The translations under genes were made by a program, and so were the position numbers. A stretch of DNA of 64,000 nucleotides from Lingula anatina. Lineage: Eukaryota; Animalia; Brachiopoda. Where the stretch lies: positions 4,340,001 through 4,404,000 of the forward strand of contig JBPQGU010000016.1 in the NCBI GenBank assembly GCA_051362555.1, read 5' to 3'. Below the pieces are notes generated by a model. It made no database searches. It saw only the letters and a list, made by a program, of their open reading frames with translations, and was not told where the DNA came from. Numbering within the stretch: position 1 is the first letter of the stretch; every line of letters starts with the position of its first letter. Of this stretch, positions 27,901-43,700 are shown one piece after another.

Positions 27901-30900
27901 GTGACGAAAATCAATCTACCACACCTGTCATTCATAAAAAATGTGGAAACGCGCCCGGGTCACTTCATCAAGGCCCCCAATTCTAGCTTTAAAGATGATC
28001 CAAAAATAAGCTCTGAGAACAGAATCTGAGGGGGGGGGGGGGGGAGACAGAGTTTTTGCTCTATTTCTTCCTTAATGTTGACACCACCACTCTTCCAGCA
28101 CTTTATTCTTACTACAAATGACCAAACACACCTACCTGACACTATAATGAAGAAAAAAAATTTTCATCCCTACCTGGCCAAAATTGAAGAAATCTCACAG
28201 TGCCGGCACTGTTCAAAATCACTCAAAATCACCAAAAATCGACCCGTCTCCGATTTTTCCAAAAAGTGACGAAAATCAATCTACCACACCTGTCATTCAT
28301 AAAAAATGTGGAAACGCGCCCAGGTCACTTCATCAAGGCCCGCAATTCAAGCTTTAAAGATGATCCAAAAATAAGCTCTGAGAACAGAATCTGAGAGGGG
28401 GGGGGAGACAGAGTTTTTGCTCTATTTCTTCCTTAATGTGGACACCACCACTCTTCCAGCACTTTATTCTTACTACGAATGACCGAACACACCTACCTGA
28501 CACTATAATGAAGAAAAAAAATTTTCATCCCTACCTGGCCAAAATTGAAGAAATCTCACAGTGCCGGCACTGTTCAAAATCACTCAAAATCACCAAAAAT
28601 CGACCCGTCTCCGATTTTTCCAAAAAGTGACGAAAATCAATCTACCACACCTGTCATTCATAAAAAATGTGGAAACGCACCCGGGTCACTTCATCAAGGC
28701 CCCCAATTCTAGCTTTAAAGATGATCCAAAAATAAGCTCTGAGAACAGAATCTGAGAGGGGGGGGGAGACAGAGTTTTTGCTCTATTTCTTCCTTAATGT
28801 TGACACCACCACTCTTCCAGCACTTTATTCTTACTACAAATGACCGAACACACCTACCTGACAATATAATGAAGAAAAAAATTTTCATCCCTACCTGGCC
28901 AAAATTGAAGAAATCTCACAGTGCCGGCACTGTTCAAAATCACTCAAAATCACCAAAAATCGACCCGTCTCCGATTTTTCCAAAAAGTGACGAAAATCAA
29001 TCTACCACACCTGTCATTCATAAAAAATGTGGAAACGCGCCCGGGTCACTTCATCAAGGCCCCCAATTCTAGCTTTAAAGATGATCCAAAAATAAGCTCT
29101 GAGAACAGAATCTGAGAGGGGGGGGAGACAGAGTTTTTGCTCTATTTCTTCCTTAATGTTGACACCACCACTCTTCCAGCACTTTATTCTTACTACAAAT
29201 GACCGAACACACCTACCTGACACTATAATGAAGAAAAAAAATTTTCATCCCTACCTGGCCAAAATTGAAGAAATCTCACAGTGCCGGCACTGTTCAAAAT
29301 CACCAAAAATCGACCCGTCTCCGATTTTTCCAAAAAGTGACGAAAATCAATCTACCACACCTGTCATTCATAAAAAATGTGGAAACGCGCCCGGGTCACT
29401 TCATCAAGGCCCCCAATTCTAGCTTTAAAGATGATCCAAAAATAAGCTCTGAGAACAGAATCTGAGAGGGGGGGGGGAGACAGAGTTTTTGCTCTATTTC
29501 TTCCTTAATGTTGACACCACCACTCTTCCAGCACTTTATTCTTACTACAAATGACCGAACACACCTACCTGACACTATAATGAAGAAAAAAAATTTTCAT
29601 CCCTACCTGGCCAAAATTGAAGAAATCTCACAGTGCCGGCACTGTTCAAAATCACTCAAAATCACCAAAAATCGACCCGTCTCCGATTTTTCCAAAAAGT
29701 GACGAAAATCAATCTACCACACCTGTCATTCATAAAAAATGTGGAAACGCGCCCGGGTCACTTCATCAAGGCCCCCAATTCTAGCTTTAAAGATGATCCA
29801 AAAATAAGCTCTGAGAACAGAATCTGAGAGGGGGGGGGGGAGACAGAGTTTTTGCTCTATTTCTTCCTTAATGTTGACACCACCACTCTTCCAGCACTTT
29901 ATTCTTACTACAAATGACCGAACACACCTACCTGACACTATAATGAAGAAAAAAAATTTTCATCCCTACCTGGCCAAAATTGAAGAAATCTCACAGTGCC
30001 GGCACTGTTCAAAATCACCAAAAATCGACCCGTCTCCGATTTTTCCAAAAAGTGACGAAAATCAATCTACCACACCTGTCATTCATAAAAAATGTGGAAA
30101 CGCGCCCGGGTGACTTCATCAAGGCCCCCAATTCTAGCTTTAAAGATGATCCAAAAATAAGCTCTGAGAACAGAATCTGAGAGGGGGGGGGAGACAGAGT
30201 TTTTGCTCTATTTCTTCCTTAATGTTGACACCACCACTCTTCCAGCACTTTATTCTTACTACAAATGACCGAACACACCTACCTGACACTATAATGAAGA
30301 AAAAAAATTTTCATCCCTACCTGGCCAAAATTGAAGAAATCTCACAGTGCCGGCACTGTTCAAAATCACTCAAAATCACCAAAAATCGACCCGTCTCCGA
30401 TTTTTCCAAAAAGTGACGAAAATCAATCTACCACACCTGTCATTCATAAAAAATGTGGAAACGCGCCCGGGTCACTTCATCAAGGCCCCCAATTCTAGCT
30501 TTAAAGATGATCCAAAAATAAGCTCTGAGAACAGAATCTGAGAGGGGGGGGGGGGAGACAGAGTTTTTGCTCTATTTCTTCCTTAATGTTGACACCACCA
30601 CTCTTCCAGCACTTTATTCTTACTACAAATGACCGAACACACCTACCTGACACTATAATGAAGAAAAAAAATTTTCATCCCTACCTGGCCAAAATTGAAG
30701 AAATCTCACAGTGCCGGCACTGTTCAAAATCACTCAAAATCACCAAAAATCAACCCGTCTCCGATTTTTCCAAAAAGTGACGAAAATCAATCTACCACAC
30801 CTGTCATTCATAAAAAATGTGGAAACGCGCCCGGGTCACTTCATCAAGGCCCCCAATTCTAGCTTTAAAGTTGATCCAAAAATAAGCTCTGAGAACAGAA

Positions 30901-31103
30901 TCTGAGAGGGGGGGGGAGGCAGAGTTTTTGCTCTATTTCTTCCTTAATGTTGACACCACCACTCTTCCAGCACTTTATTCTTACTACAAATGACCGAACA
31001 CACCTACCTGACACTATAATGAAGAAAAAAAATTTTCATCCCTACCTGGCCAAAATTGAAGAAATCTCACAGTGCCGGCACTGTTCAAAATCACTCAAAA
31101 TCA

Positions 31104-31111
31104 CCAAAAAT
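31104..31111 (+). repeat. Target-site duplication, left copy (CCAAAAAT; right copy at 31780-31787)
   Basis: Uninterrupted monomers carry CCAAAAAT once at this position (e.g. 30743-30750); here it occurs on both sides of the element. Confidence 0.93.
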
Positions 31112-31188
31112 CACCCTGAGCTTCAGAGCTAACTTGACACTAACCTTTTCACTGTAGCCTATCTCCATCGTGTCAAGTAACCTCTGAC
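31112..31188 (+). repeat. Left terminal inverted repeat (77 bp)
   Basis: Exact reverse complement of 31703-31779 when read base by base; the match ends at 31189/31702. Confidence 0.97.
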
Positions 31189-31214
31189 GAAAATAGTTTG
31201 ACCTAGTTTATATA

Positions 31215-31275
31215 AGCCAATCAAATCCATGTTTCAAAATTTTTCACCAAAGTTTGGTGAAAACGCTGATTGGTT
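31215..31275. promoter_or_regulatory. CCAAT-box pair (NF-Y-type) upstream of the helicase fragment
   Basis: AGCCAATCA at 31215-31223 and TGATTGGTT at 31267-31275 flank a 23-bp hairpin. Function is inferred from motif only. Confidence 0.4.
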
Positions 31276-31391
31276 GACCGTCAATCGGCAATCCTCGGCT
31301 GATTCCGCAAGCTCCATACTAACAACATAGTTATTGTCGAGTGCGGAGACATCCGAGTAGTTCCGAGTGTATTACCGTACACAAAGAAAGC

Positions 31392-31566
31392 AAGGCGAGT
31401 GACTACGAAAAAGAATGTGTTCAGTTATCTCTTGATTCTTTGCAAAATATGAGTAAATCGGAATTGAAACCATAGGGTCTAGCAGTTTGAGGCCCTGCAT
31501 CATTATCTACTGAGAGACGATGTTATTTGCGTGCTGCCCACAGGTTACGGCAAGTCCCTGATATTC
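31392..31566 (+). pseudogene. Disrupted N-terminal fragment of a RecQ-like superfamily-2 helicase (Q-motif region and motif I/Walker A)
   Basis: Manual translation: 31392-31472 gives KASDYEKECVQLSLDSLQNMSKSELKP, then a stop and a 7-bp frameshift; 31483-31566 gives QFEALHHYLLRDDVICVLPTGYGKSLIF. This fits the RecQ-family pattern (F/L)(R/K)PxQxEAIxxxLxGxDVxxxxPTGxGKSLx(Y/F). Downstream motifs (Ia, DEAH) are absent. Confidence 0.85.
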
Positions 31567-31577
31567 AGCCTTATCTT

Positions 31578-31687
31578 TGATTGGTCCGGATTTGAACAAA
31601 GCGCGCTTTGACTCGTTCGCGTTCATTGGCTAGATCGTTTAATGAGTCATTGAGTGCGGGCTTTTAAATTTGATTGGCGGGCGGCGG
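31578..31687 (-). promoter_or_regulatory. Cluster of three minus-strand CCAAT boxes plus a GC-rich box inside the right TIR
   Basis: TGATTGG at 31578, CATTGGC at 31624 and TGATTGG at 31671 (spaced 46-47 bp apart); GGCGGGCGGCGG at 31676-31687; ATGAGTCAT at 31642-31650. Confidence 0.4.
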
Positions 31688-31702
31688 AGGCAATCGAATC
31701 TG

Positions 31703-31779
31703 GTCAGAGGTTACTTGACACGATGGAGATAGGCTACAGTGAAAAGGTTAGTGTCAAGTTAGCTCTGAAGCTCAGGGTG
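31703..31779 (-). repeat. Right terminal inverted repeat (77 bp)
   Basis: GTCAGAGGTTACTTGACACGATGG...GCTCAGGGTG is the exact reverse complement of 31112-31188. Confidence 0.97.
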
Positions 31780-34700
31780 CCAAAAATCAACCCGTCTCCG
31801 ATTTTTCCAAAAAGTGACGAAAATCAATCTACCACACCTGTCATTCATAAAAAATGTGGAAACGCGCCCGGGTCACTTCATCAAGGCCCCCAATTCTAGC
31901 TTTAAAGTTGATCCAAAAATAAGCTCTGAGAACAGAATCTGAGAGGGGGGGGGAGGCAGAGTTTTTGCTCTATTTCTTCCTTAATGTTGACACCACCACT
32001 CTTCCAGCACTTTATTCTTACTACAAATGACCGAACACACCTACCTGACACTATAATGAAGAAAAAAAATTTTCATCCCTACCTGGCCAAAATTGAAGAA
32101 ATCTCACAGTGCCGGCACTGTTCAAAATCACTCAAAATCACCAAAAATCGAACCGTCTCCGATTTTTCCAAAAAGTGACGAAAATCAATCTACCACACCT
32201 GTCATTCATAAAAAATGTGGAAACGCGCCCGGGTCACTTCATCAAGGCCCCCAATTCTAGCTTTAAAGATGATCCAAAAATAAGCTCTGAGAACAGAATC
32301 TGAGAGGGGGGGGGGGGGGGGAGACAGAGTTTTTGCTCTATTTCTTCCTTAATGTTGACACCACCACTCTTCCAGCACTTTATTCTTACTACAAATGACC
32401 GAACACACCTACCTGACACTATAATGAAGAAAAAAAATTTTCATCCCTACCTGGCCAAAATTGAAGAAATCTTACAGTGCCCGCACTGTTCAAAATCACT
32501 CAAAATCACCAAAAATTGACCCCTCTCCGATTTTTCCAAAAAGTGACGAAAATCAATCTACCACACCTGTCATTCATAAAAAATGTGGAAACGCGCCCGG
32601 GTCACTTCATCAAGGCCCCCAATTCTAGCTTTAAAGATGATCCAAAAATAAGCTCTGAGAACAGAATCTGAGAGGGGGGGGGGGAGACAGAGTTTTTGCT
32701 CTATTTCTTCCTTAATGTTGACACCACCACTCTTCCAGCACTTTATTCTTACTACAAATGACCGAACACACCTACCTGACACTATAATGAAGAAAAAAAA
32801 TTTTCATCCCTACCTGGCCAAAATTGAAGAAATCTCACAGTACCGGCACTGTTCAAAATCACTCAAAATCACCAAAAATTGACCCGTCTCCGATTTTTCC
32901 AAAAAGTGACGAAAATCAATCTACCACACCTGTCATTCATAAAAAATGTGGAAACGCGCCCGGGTCACTTCATCAAGGCCCCCAATTCTAGCTTTAAAGA
33001 TGATCCAAAAATAAGCTCTGAGAACAGAATCTGAGAGGGGGGGGAGACAGAGTTTTTGCTCTATTTCTTCCTTAATGTTGACACCACCACTCTTCCAGCA
33101 CTTTATTCTTACTATAAATGACCGAACACACCTACCTGACACTATAATGAAGAAAAAAAATTTTCATCCCTACCTGGCCAAAACTGAAGAAATCTCAAAG
33201 TGCCGGCACTGTTCAAAATCACTCAAAATCACCAAAAATCGACCCGTCTCCAATTTTTCCAAAAAGTGACGAAAATCAATCTACCACACCTGTCATTCAT
33301 AAAAAATGTGGAAACGCGCCCGGGTCACTTCATCAAGGCCCCCAATTCTAGCTTTAAAGATGATCCAAAAATAAGCTCTGAGAACAGAATCTGAGGGGGG
33401 GGGGGAGACAGAGTTTTTGCTCTATTTCATCCTTAATGTTGACACCACCACTCTTCCAGCACTTTATTCTTACTACAAATGACCGAACACACCTACCTGA
33501 CACTATAATGAAGAAAAAAAAATTTCATCCCTACCTGGCCAAAATTGAAGAAATCTCACAGTGCCGGCACTGTTCAAAATCACTCAAAATCACCAAAAAT
33601 CGACCCGTCTCCGATTTTTCCAAAAAATGACGAAAATCAATCTACCACACCTGTCATTCATAAAAAATGTGGAAACGCGCCCGGGTCACTTCATCAAGGC
33701 CCCCAATTCTAGCTTTAAAGATGATCCAAAAATAAGCTCTGAGAACAGAATCTGAGAGGGTGGGGTAGACAGAGTTTTTGCTCTATTTCTTCCTTAATGT
33801 TGACACCACCACTCTTCCAGCACTTTATTCTTACTACAAATGACCGAACACACCTACCTGACACTATAATGAAGAAAAAAAATTTTCATCCCTAGCTGAC
33901 CAAAATTGAAGAAATCTCACAGTGCCGGCACTGTTCAAAATCACTCAAAATCACCAAAAATTGACCCGTCTCCGATTTTTCCAAAAAGTGACGAAAATCA
34001 ATCTACCACACCTGTCATTCATAAAAAATGTGGAAACGCGCCCGGGTCACTTCATCAAGGCCCCCAATTCTAGCTTTAAAGATGATCCAAAAATAAGCTC
34101 TGAGAACAGAATCTGAGAGGGGGTGGAGACAGAGTTTTTGCTCTATTTCTTCCTTAATGTTGACACCACCACTCTTCCAGCACTTTATTCTTACTTCAAA
34201 TGACCGAACACACCTACCTGACACTATAATGAAGAAAAAAATTTTCATCCCTACCTGACCAAAATTGAAGAAATCTCACAGTGCCGGCACTGTTCAAAAT
34301 CACCAAAAATCGACCCGTCTCCGATTTTTCCAAAAAGTGACGAAAATCAATCTACCACACCTGTCATTCATAAAAAATGTGGAAACGCACCCGGGTCACT
34401 TCATCAAGGCCCCCAATTCTAGCTTTAAAGATGATCCAAAAATAAGCTCTGAGAACAGAATCTGAGAGGGGGGGGGAGACAGAGTTTTTGCTCTATTTCT
34501 TCCTTAATGTTGACACCACCACTCTTCCAGCACTTTATTCTTACTACAAATGACCGAACACACCTACCTGACACTATAATGAAGAAAAAAAATTTTCATC
34601 CCTACCTGGCCAAAATTGAAGAAATCTCACAGTGCCGGCACTGTTCAAAATCACTCAAAATCACCAAAAATCGACCCGTCTCCGATTTTTCCAAAAAGTG

Positions 34701-40700: not shown

Positions 40701-43700
40701 AAGAAAAAAAATGTTCATCCCTACCTGGCCAAAATTGAAGAAATCTCACAGTGCCGGCACTGTTCAAAATCACTCAAAATCACCAAAAATCGACCCGTCT
40801 CCGATTTTTCCAAAAAGTGACGAAAATCAATCTACCACACCTGTCATTCATAAAAAATGTGGAAACGCGCCCGGGTCACTTCATCAAGGCCCCCAATTCT
40901 AGCTTTAAAGATGATCCAAAAATAAGCTCTGAGAACAGAATCTGAGAGGGGGGGGGAGACAGAGTTTTTGCACTATTTCTTCCTTAATGTTGTCACCACC
41001 ACTCTTCCAGCACTTTATTCTTACTACAAATGACCGAACACACCTACCTGACACTATAATGAAGAAAAAAAATTTTCATCCCTACCTGGCCAAAATTGAA
41101 GAAATCTCACAGTGCCGGCACTGTTCAAAATCACTCAAAATCACCAAAAATCGACCCGTCTCCGATTTTTCCAAAAAGTGACGAAAATCGATCTACCACA
41201 CCTGTCATTCATAAAAAATGTGGAAACGCGCCTGGGTCACTTCATCAAGGCCCCCAATTCTAGCTTTAAAGATGATCCAAAAATAAGCTCTGAGAACAGA
41301 ATCTGAGAGGGGGGGGGGGGAGACAGAGTTTTTGCTCTATTTCTTCCTTAATGTTGACACCACCACTCTTCCAGCACTTTATTCTTACTACAAATGACCG
41401 AACACACCTACCTGACACTATAATGAAGAAAAAAAATTTTCATCCCTACCTGGCCAAAATTGAAGAAATCTCACAGTGCCGGCACTGTTCAAAATCACTC
41501 AAAATCACCAAAAATCGACCCGTCTCCGATTTTTCCAAAAAGTGACGAAAATCAATCTACCACACCTGTCATTCATAAAAAATGTGGAAATGCGCCCGGG
41601 TCACTTCATCAAGGCCCCCAATTCTAGCTTTAAAGATGATCCAAAAATAAGCTCTGAGAACAGAATCTGAGAGGGGGGGGGAGACAGAGTTTTTGCTCTA
41701 TTTCTTCCTTAATGTTGACACCACCACTCTTCCAGCACTTTATTCTTACTACAAATGACCGAACACACCTACCTGACACTATAATGAAGAAAAAAAATTT
41801 TCATCCCTACCTGGCCAAAATTGAAGAAATCTCACAGTGCCGGCACTGTTCAAAATCACTCAAAATCACCAAAAATCGACCCGTCTCCGATTTTTCCAAA
41901 AAATGATGAAAATCAATCTACCACACCTGTCATTCATAAAAAATGTGGAAACGCGCCCGGGTCACTTCATCAAGGCCCCCAATTCTAGCTTTAAAGATGA
42001 TCCAAAAATAAGCTCTGAGAACAGAATCTGAGAGGGGTGGGGAGACTGAGTTTTTGCTCTATTTCTTCCTTAATGTTGACACCACCACTCTTCCAGCACT
42101 TTATTCTTACTACAAATGACCGAACACACCTACCTGACACTATAATGAAGAAAAAAAATTTTCATCCCTACCTGGCCAAAATTGAAGAAATCTTACAGTG
42201 CCGGCACTGTTCAAAATCACTCAAAATCACCAAAAATCGACCCGTCTCCGATTTTTCCAAAAAGTGACGAAAATCAATCTACCACACCTGTCATTCATAA
42301 AAAATGTGGAAACGCGCCCGGGTCACTTCATCAAGGCCCCCAATTCTAGCTTTAAAGATGATCCAAAAATAAGCTCTGAGAACAGAATCTGAGAGGGGGG
42401 GGGAGGCAGAGTTTTTGCTCTATTTCTTCCTTAATGTTGACACCACCACTCTTCCAGCACTTTATTCTTACTACAAATGACCGAACACACCTACCTGACA
42501 CTATAATGAAGAAAAAAATTTTCATCCCTACCTGGCCAAAATTGAAGAAATCTCACAGTGCCGGCACTGTTCAAAATCACTCAAAATCACCAAAAATCGA
42601 CCCGTCTCCGATTTTTCCAAAAAGTGACGAAAATCAATCTACCACACCTGTCATTCATAAAAAATGTGGAAACGCGCCCGGGTCACTTCATCAAGGCCCC
42701 CAATTCTAGCTTTAAAGATGATCCAAAAATAAGCTCTGAGAACAGAATCTGAGAGGGGGGGGAGACAGAGTTTTTGCTCTATTTCTTCCTTAATGTTGAC
42801 ACCACCACTCTTCCAGCACTTTATTCTTACTACAAATGACCGAACACACCTACCTGACACTATAATGAAGAAAAAAAATTTTCATCCCTACCTGGCCAAA
42901 ATTGAAGAAATCTCACAGTGCCGGCACTGTTCAAAATCACCAAAAATCAACCCGTCTCCGATTTTTCCAAAAAGTGACGAAAATCAATCTACCACACCTG
43001 TCATTCATAAAAAATGTGGAAACGCGCCCGGGTCACTTCATCAAGGCCCCCAATTCTAGCTTTAAAGATGATCCAAAAATAAGCTCTGAGAACAGAATCT
43101 GAGAGGGGGGGGGGAGACAGAGTTTTTGCTCTATTTCTTCCTTAATGTTGACACCACCACTCTTCCAGCACTTTATTCTTACTACAAATGACCGAACACA
43201 CCTACCTGACACTATAATGAAGAAAAAAAATTTTCATCCCTACCTGGCCAAAATTGAAGAAATCTCACAGTGCCGGCACTGTTCAAAATCACTCAAAATC
43301 ACCAAAAATCGACCCGTCTCCGATTTTTCCAAAAAGTGACGAAAATCAATCTACCACACCTGTCATTCATAAAAAATGTGGAAACGCGCCCGGGTCACTT
43401 CATCAAGGCCCCCAATTCTAGCTTTAAAGATGATCCAAAAATAAGCTCTGAGAACAGAATCTGAGAGGGGGGGGGGGAGACAGAGTTTTTGCTCTATTTC
43501 TTCCTTAATGTTGACACCACCACTCTTCCAGCACTTTATTCTTACTACAAATGACCGAACACACCTACCTGACACTATAATGAAGAAAAAAATTTTCATC
43601 CCTACCTGGCCAAAATTGAAGAAATCTCACAGTGCCGGCACTGTTCAAAATCACTCAAAATCACCAAAAATCGACCCGTCTCCGATTTTTCCAAAAAGTG

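Follow-up and report, generated by a model that had tools for sequence, protein, structure and literature searches.

To which lineage of DNA transposons does a short element belong when it carries the beginning of a RecQ-like helicase gene between perfect terminal inverted repeats (TIRs) and is flanked by an 8-bp target-site duplication (TSD)? The question is raised by one insertion in the window examined here, a term that denotes the whole stretch of DNA analysed (64,000 nucleotides).

The insertion and its satellite target

The whole window, in a context that the original prediction does not mention, is a single array of a 361-bp satellite, present in about 175 copies and interrupted only by the element; repeat analysis places about 86 copies to its left (1–31111) and about 89 to its right (31780–64000). 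The monomers are homogeneous, with a mean identity of 99.4% to the consensus among the 131 that were scored. Length variation is found mainly in long G and A runs, and a perfect 16-bp palindrome, ACAGTGCCGGCACTGT, is present in most monomers.

The insertion occupies 31112–31779 (668 bp) and is bounded by perfect 77-bp TIRs with CACCC...GGGTG termini (CA...TG). The left TIR (31112–31188, plus strand) starts with CACCCTGAG and the right TIR (31703–31779, minus strand) finishes with CTCAGGGTG; among contigs from public sequencing runs, X1 records 2 and 3 start precisely at 31112, and X5 record 23 stops precisely at 31779. In 200 shuffles of the element, the longest perfect inverted match was 16 bp, against 77 bp in the real sequence. 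The 8-bp TSD CCAAAAAT was located by register analysis at 31104–31111 and 31780–31787, and on the left also by the other satellite monomers, which represent the empty site and read CCAAAAAT followed directly by C(G/A)ACCC. Site spacing at the insertion is 1037 bp, equal to 361 + 668 + 8.

Among the registers tried, symmetric TIRs were obtained only with ends at 31112 and 31779 and the TSD CCAAAAAT; 9- and 10-bp readings require a left end that is short by one and two bases, respectively. The direct repeat can be read out to 10 bp because the next two bases of the CAACCC target variant are also the first two bases of the TIR (CA). This rare variant occurs in the target monomer, in the next monomer upstream (30743), and at 42940. 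The perfect 77-bp TIRs, CA...TG ends, and 8-bp TSD of the original prediction are borne out by the shuffle control and the empty sites, and its claim that only the 8-bp reading gives symmetric TIRs held in all registers tried. No second copy of the element is present elsewhere in the 64-kb window. The copy is likely to have entered the satellite recently, since its TIRs are perfect and it has not spread to other monomers.

An inverted pair of 18-bp motifs, 89% alike, lies inside the left TIR (31123–31140 and 31170–31187), and each end has such a pair; these may be regarded as putative transposase-binding sites. The motif TAGCCTA, which resembles the TAGCCTG terminus of the relatives described below, is also found inside each TIR (31155–31161 and 31730–31736), 43 bp from the end, and may be a chance occurrence or an older end that was extended outward. 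Inside the TIRs, the left arm (31189–31391, plus strand), with CCAAT at 31217 and ATTGG at 31269, would comprise the promoter and 5' untranslated region of the helicase gene. The right arm (31575–31702, minus strand) may be the inward promoter of a lost transposase gene, as suggested by ATTGG at 31580, 31625, and 31673, by loose contig ends, and by the convergent gene layout of relatives. The CCAAT/ATTGG boxes of both arms are predicted promoter elements. No coding remnant was recognised in the right arm, and Rfam gave no matches in 30700–32200.

A helicase remnant and its relatives

The helicase remnant lies between the arms at 31392–31571 on the plus strand, and its extent of about 58 codons was delimited by sequence searches and by reads of RNA run X16. 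AAG stands in place of the start codon and is followed by 26 codons up to ELKP, by a stop and a 7-bp insert at about 31473–31481, and, downstream, by the Q motif and motif I (QFEAL...VLPTGYGKSLIF). The ELKP / QFEALHHYLLRDDVICVLPTGYGKSLIF translation is found in frames +2 and +3, with the stop and insert between them, and the remnant is predicted to make no functional protein. The frameshifting insert (31473–31482) reads TAG-GGTC-TAG and resembles an excision footprint with a 3-bp duplication.

The remnant matches Pfam DEAD with E = 4e-4 and 20.6 bits, which is below the gathering cut-off of 26 bits. In a sequence search of the PDB, WRN was the best match (E 0.003), followed by RECQ1 and BLM, all of them weak. 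These host RecQ helicases resemble the remnant in the Q motif and motif I, but they score weakly, are without TIR context, and, in the WRN alignments, have C where the remnant has I after GKSL. With the read-through fragment as query, none of 8 candidates in a word-indexed search received a score, and HMMER with 30 residues returned 10 matches, including 4 that were repetitive junk (P0001, P0003, P0004, and P0006). A RecQ-like SF2 helicase of the transposon-borne type is present here as a remnant only. The frameshifted Q-motif/motif I segment that had been read from the letters was recovered in both frames with DEAD and WRN as matches, and the HMM check for an SF2 helicase yielded the DEAD match, though below the gathering score.

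A profile built from the fragment and five short matches retrieved 1200 longer proteins at E ≤ 0.01, the best 120 of which were examined. The top of these best 120 consists of stand-alone RecQ-like helicases from soft and stony corals, hydrozoans, bivalves, hemichordates, and fish, mostly without RQC/HRDC and with several divergent copies per animal genome; microbial and viral RecQs appear lower down. For the metagenome scan, the best 80 of 482 confirmed stretches were considered. Sixty-six were treated as animal-type, and 14 were dropped by eye as probably microbial or viral (L067, L070, L084, L085, L092, L105, L106, L120, L121, L126, L132, L133, L136, and L137). Identity to the metagenome relatives is 52%–66%, with 52%–63% over 30 residues at loci linked to DUF6589. 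Small shares of the element's words were also seen in estuary metagenomes.

The type of helicase can be judged from the residue after LPTGxGKSL, which is I in the element and at 26 of 30 transposon-linked loci. It is C in 43 of 58 viral RecQs and in 7 of 10 that bear RQC/HRDC. The comparison uses 30 residues and is circular in part, since likeness to the fragment had determined the ranking of the loci. Within the same comparison, HMM scores are 57.8 bits for transposon-linked helicases versus 42.4 bits for RQC/HRDC-bearing RecQs and 48.4 bits for viral ones. The viral loci (58, L001–L058), many with giant-virus-type contig names, share the motif I form LPTG(Y/F)GKS with the transposon helicases; they were used as a control only, because the diagnostic residue is mostly C or T and their DNA does not resemble the ends.

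The relatives also resemble the element in layout. A TAG(C/A)CT- or CA(A/T)(C/T)CTCG-type end was found 222–492 bp upstream of the Q motif at 29 of the 66 animal-type loci (371 bp in the element), the motifs having been chosen post hoc and without a shuffle control, and many of the other contigs being too short upstream. The terminal pattern YA-x-(C/T)-C-T is common to the element and these AcademH-like relatives. Two ends could be recognised at 10 loci, and a clear TSD at five of them, always of 9 bp: exact in L110, L117, and L123, and with one mismatch in L112 and L131. These five also show that short deletion derivatives retaining the helicase 5' end are common. No clear TSD was found in the remaining two-ended relatives (L101, L115, L119, L128, and L129). 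L117, which is 1637 bp long and has CATTCTCG ends, shows an exact 9-bp TSD and a helicase that starts about 200 bp in, much like that of the element; CA...TG termini are therefore not special. Beyond about 10–14 bases, the CACCCTGAG end was found at no metagenome locus, and a 29-base TIR pattern had no matches in the metagenomes.

Candidate 8-bp TSDs in L075, L117 (inner), and L128 were rejected, because their 12/16 inverted matches do not exceed what the shuffled control gave (7 hits in 66). Two further loci deserve mention. In L093 (1625–1660), a TAGCCTG-type end is followed, 19 bp further in, by one of the CAACCTCG type, which suggests that one AcademH-like element was inserted in the TIR of another. 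L119 (1954–3006) is a helicase-remnant element with TAGACT ends, flanked by only a 3-bp repeat (AGC); the repeat has the length of an AcademX-type TSD and may be chance or a decayed TSD.

A transposase candidate emerged from 110 open reading frames at 38 loci, where in five cases (L066, L068, L071, L098, and L104) DUF6589 is encoded downstream of the helicase and on the other strand, L066 having a CA-type end and L068 a TAG-type end. No other transposase-like family was found downstream of such helicases at the 38 loci; one DDE_Tnp_4 reading frame lies outside the left end of L068. Full-length DUF6589 proteins keep the motifs DNxD, GD, WH, and DxxxE (D..D..H..E), which may form a DDE triad, and by its motifs, distribution, and context DUF6589 is a putative Academ-type transposase. 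The AcademH lineage of the Academ superfamily, reportedly described by Kojima in 2020, is said to occur in animals and fungi and to include one PHD sublineage. Atlas look-alikes of DUF6589 form eukaryotic clusters found most often in Cnidaria, Basidiomycota, and Mollusca, and 14% of the members of one cluster have PHD, which fits that reported range. A DUF6589 model (pLDDT 58) gave no usable match with Foldseek, VIA-align, or PDB sequence search, and says nothing on the transposase fold. For the element's own family, no transposase was retrieved in the element or in the metagenome TIR scan.

Copies of the family in public runs of the host

Nine public runs of one organism contain 68%–84% of the element's words, and none of the listed runs that contain these words is recorded as RNA. 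Run contigs were compared with 31000–31900 and then with 31375–31620. Besides the contigs that begin or end exactly at the element's boundaries, loose ends are found before 31112 in three X1 contigs and behind 31779 in four, and one X2 loose end is at 31781; left and right ends look alike in contigs, the TIRs being perfect, but the CA does belong to the terminus of the family. Perfect TIRs, empty sites, and shared contig break points together identify a TIR-bounded, mobile, multi-copy unit. As the host contigs end at the TIRs, the two flanks of a copy are unpaired, and the TSD is readable at one junction only. Reads of the satellite are very deep in runs X5 and X6 and almost missing from X1 and X2; the latter are therefore not whole-genome-like libraries.

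The deleted form is not peculiar to the satellite copy. A 345-bp X1 contig with a depth of 478 matches 31379–31723 with one difference and no gap, and it carries the frameshifted, deleted form, which was therefore shared and amplified after breakage. Contig depth on both arms is far above that on the helicase piece, depth in this sense not being a copy number. Loose ends and a step in depth at 31369–31371 reveal siblings that have the same left arm and different interiors, and in X2, X5, and X22 the right arm is joined at 31575 by other members. One sibling carries an ATG of its own in that context. Such a pattern suggests either several related parents or deletion derivatives that arose independently.

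Other copies preserve what the window copy has lost. In RNA run X16, 10 of 18 reads have T at 31393, which gives ATG where the window copy has AAG, and the 7-bp insert is missing in 33 of 41 reads, which restores an ELKPEQFEAL-type sequence. A 2201-bp X2 contig (depth 17), which starts inside the helicase and is not physically tied to a TIR, is also without the insert, differs at 7 of 91 positions over 31481–31571, and then continues. Thirty of its loose letters, translated by hand, give L-T-P-L-V-L-R-Y-M-R without a stop, in keeping with the F-Q-L-x-P-hydrophobic pattern of relatives. The departure of this contig after 31571 and the joins of other contigs at 31575 locate the internal-deletion junction at 31572–31574. 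Copies with the ATG, without the insert, or with a continued frame thus point to a multi-copy internal-deletion derivative, not a captured exon.

About 6% of run X16 yielded 186 reads, whose mate orientations are about equal over the helicase part. These reads show that family sequence occurs in poly(A) RNA; a promoter of its own and read-through both fit. Run X22 contributed 3 reads only, all from a diverged right arm. In X16, 21 first mates on the plus strand start at 31584, and depth triples to the right of this position. A transcript that starts or ends in the right arm could explain this, as could duplicates.

These copies also bear on pack-type capture, in which an unrelated MITE would have picked up a host RecQ exon, the alternative named in the original prediction. 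Siblings that share both arms but differ inside (31369–31371 and 31575) indicate that interiors do get swapped. However, the piece is not an internal exon but the 5' end of a gene, with its start codon and upstream DNA and at a transposon-like distance from the end; its motif LPTGYGKSLIF is of the transposon type and not of the C-bearing RecQ type; and its closest relatives are many divergent copies per animal genome. The transposon-type residue, the retained start codon, and the position near the TIR therefore weigh against capture, which we regard as very improbable.

Superfamily placement and the 8-bp target site

Very probably, the element arose by internal deletion from a two-gene DNA transposon of the AcademH type and is non-autonomous. 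The original prediction of an internally deleted helicase-plus-transposase copy is supported by the family copies and the relatives. It had left the lineage as either an AcademH variant or an undescribed family: the AcademH-like placement stands, whereas an undescribed lineage is not favoured by an anatomy that is common in relatives or by the 9-bp TSD of L117. The design of the element is already known and is common in marine-invertebrate DNA; a marine invertebrate is also the likely host, judging from the relatives and from the small shares in estuary metagenomes. AcademH elements are alike in having TIRs and a RecQ-like helicase gene near one end, and the helicase relatives face a DUF6589 gene and sit in elements with 9-bp TSDs. 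Two differences are the 8-bp TSD and the CACCCTGAG end, which contrasts with the TAG(C/A)CT or CA(A/T)(C/T)CTCG ends of the relatives. According to PMC10045372, AcademH has TSDs of 9 or 10 bp and AcademX of 3 or 4 bp. We file the element as AcademH-like and not as a proven member because its TSD is 8 bp, not 9–10 bp, and because no transposase of its own family was seen.

Other published sources offer further points of comparison. AcademH is also covered in PMC10799480, and Academ-H is listed in a sea anemone repeat table (PMC13018225). Among the curated Academ entries seen in supplement file 24 of PMC10294476 (14 of 100), 13 begin with TAG and 1 with TAC, which the TAG-type ends of the relatives match; no entry of this bivalve DDE library starts with CACCCT, CAACCT, or CAATCT.

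By analogy with its relatives, the parent would have had a helicase gene and a DUF6589 transposase gene facing each other, each with a promoter between it and the nearer TIR. Most of the helicase and the entire transposase would have been lost through a deletion between 31571 and 31575, and loss of the start codon together with the 7-bp insert and its stop would have silenced the leftover helicase. The short element was probably amplified in trans by a transposase from a longer copy elsewhere in the genome, as only the ends are needed; such trans-mobilisation by cut-and-paste would accord with what is known of the family.

Could the helicase, or its 5' end, have been acquired by a different superfamily? 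Kolobok elements have TTAA as their TSD, and hAT and P are among the groups that make 8-bp TSDs; the ends of hAT elements read YARNG. PMC12730594 reports 8-bp TSDs for Zisupton and Dileera, and CA..TG termini with a 7-bp TSD and no TIRs for Kyakuja, and PMC10045372 reports an 8-bp TSD for Merlin and a range that includes 8 bp for MuDR. The TSD of this copy is therefore like those of Zisupton/Dileera, hAT, Merlin, and P, as well as within the MuDR range, and its CA..TG termini are like those of Kyakuja, which differs in its 7-bp TSD and lack of TIRs. Helicases do ride in several lineages: KolobokH, recorded only from fungi, and Kolobok-1_CCri are DNA transposons that encode a RecQ helicase, according to the relevant part of PMC9587614. 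Kolobok is thus alike in its helicase but not in its TSD, which in the element is CCAAAAAT. In the passages of PMC12730594 and PMC10045372 that deal with these groups, helicase cargo is mentioned for neither Zisupton/Dileera/Kyakuja nor Merlin. No hAT, Zisupton, Merlin, or P transposase was seen in the element or downstream of related helicases at the 38 loci, where DUF6589 was the only transposase-like family. The AcademH-like relatives agree with the element in the distance to the helicase start and in the YA-x-(C/T)-C-T terminal pattern, and CACCC misfits the hAT end. Acquisition by one of these 8-bp-TSD superfamilies (hAT, Zisupton/Dileera, Merlin, P, or MuDR) is accordingly unlikely.

Within an AcademH-like placement, it must be asked whether 8 bp is the usual TSD of the family. 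The 8-bp junction is probably real and not a sequencing slip, since one-base losses at 2-base runs were seen in only 3 of 5,502 site-monomers (131 monomers scored). The family may nevertheless be an ordinary one with 9- or 10-bp TSDs, in which this junction lost the C of a CC or the CA of a CACA, or was cut one base short. The target continues with C and A, the first two bases of the TIR, and both losses give the observed sequence; all five clear TSDs in relatives, including that of the CA...TG element L117, are 9 bp; and the published range for AcademH is 9–10 bp. On the other hand, this explanation needs an extra event of a kind that, by assembly error or slippage, is rare, and the element's symmetric registers are 8 (exact) and 10 (one mismatch), versus 7, 9, and 11 in 9-bp relatives. 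We give the ordinary 9- or 10-bp family close to an even chance.

That an AcademH-like family of this kind usually makes 8-bp TSDs is plausible but somewhat doubtful. More specifically, and more tentatively, the element may stem from an AcademH sublineage that has CAC...GTG ends, was active recently, and would make an 8-nt stagger with its transposase-helicase pair. The host may still contain and transcribe an intact autonomous parent. A CAC-ended sublineage with 8-bp TSDs is what might be new here, a suggestion that is equally tentative; the portions of the literature searched contain no description of an 8-bp-TSD AcademH family, the primary AcademH paper and Repbase lying outside that search.

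If the family proves to make 9-bp TSDs, the element would be an ordinary non-autonomous AcademH copy. A passage of PMC10045372 suggests that the length of the TSD in Academ elements goes by the accessory enzyme: 9–10 bp for the helicase and 3–4 bp for the nuclease. An 8-bp sublineage, if true, would extend the 9–10-bp range and provide a natural comparison for this idea, and short elements of such a family could be misfiled as hAT or Zisupton on TSD alone. The family appears young, with perfect ends, an empty-site control, an apparently longer copy, and many RNA runs, and may therefore offer a handle for an active element.
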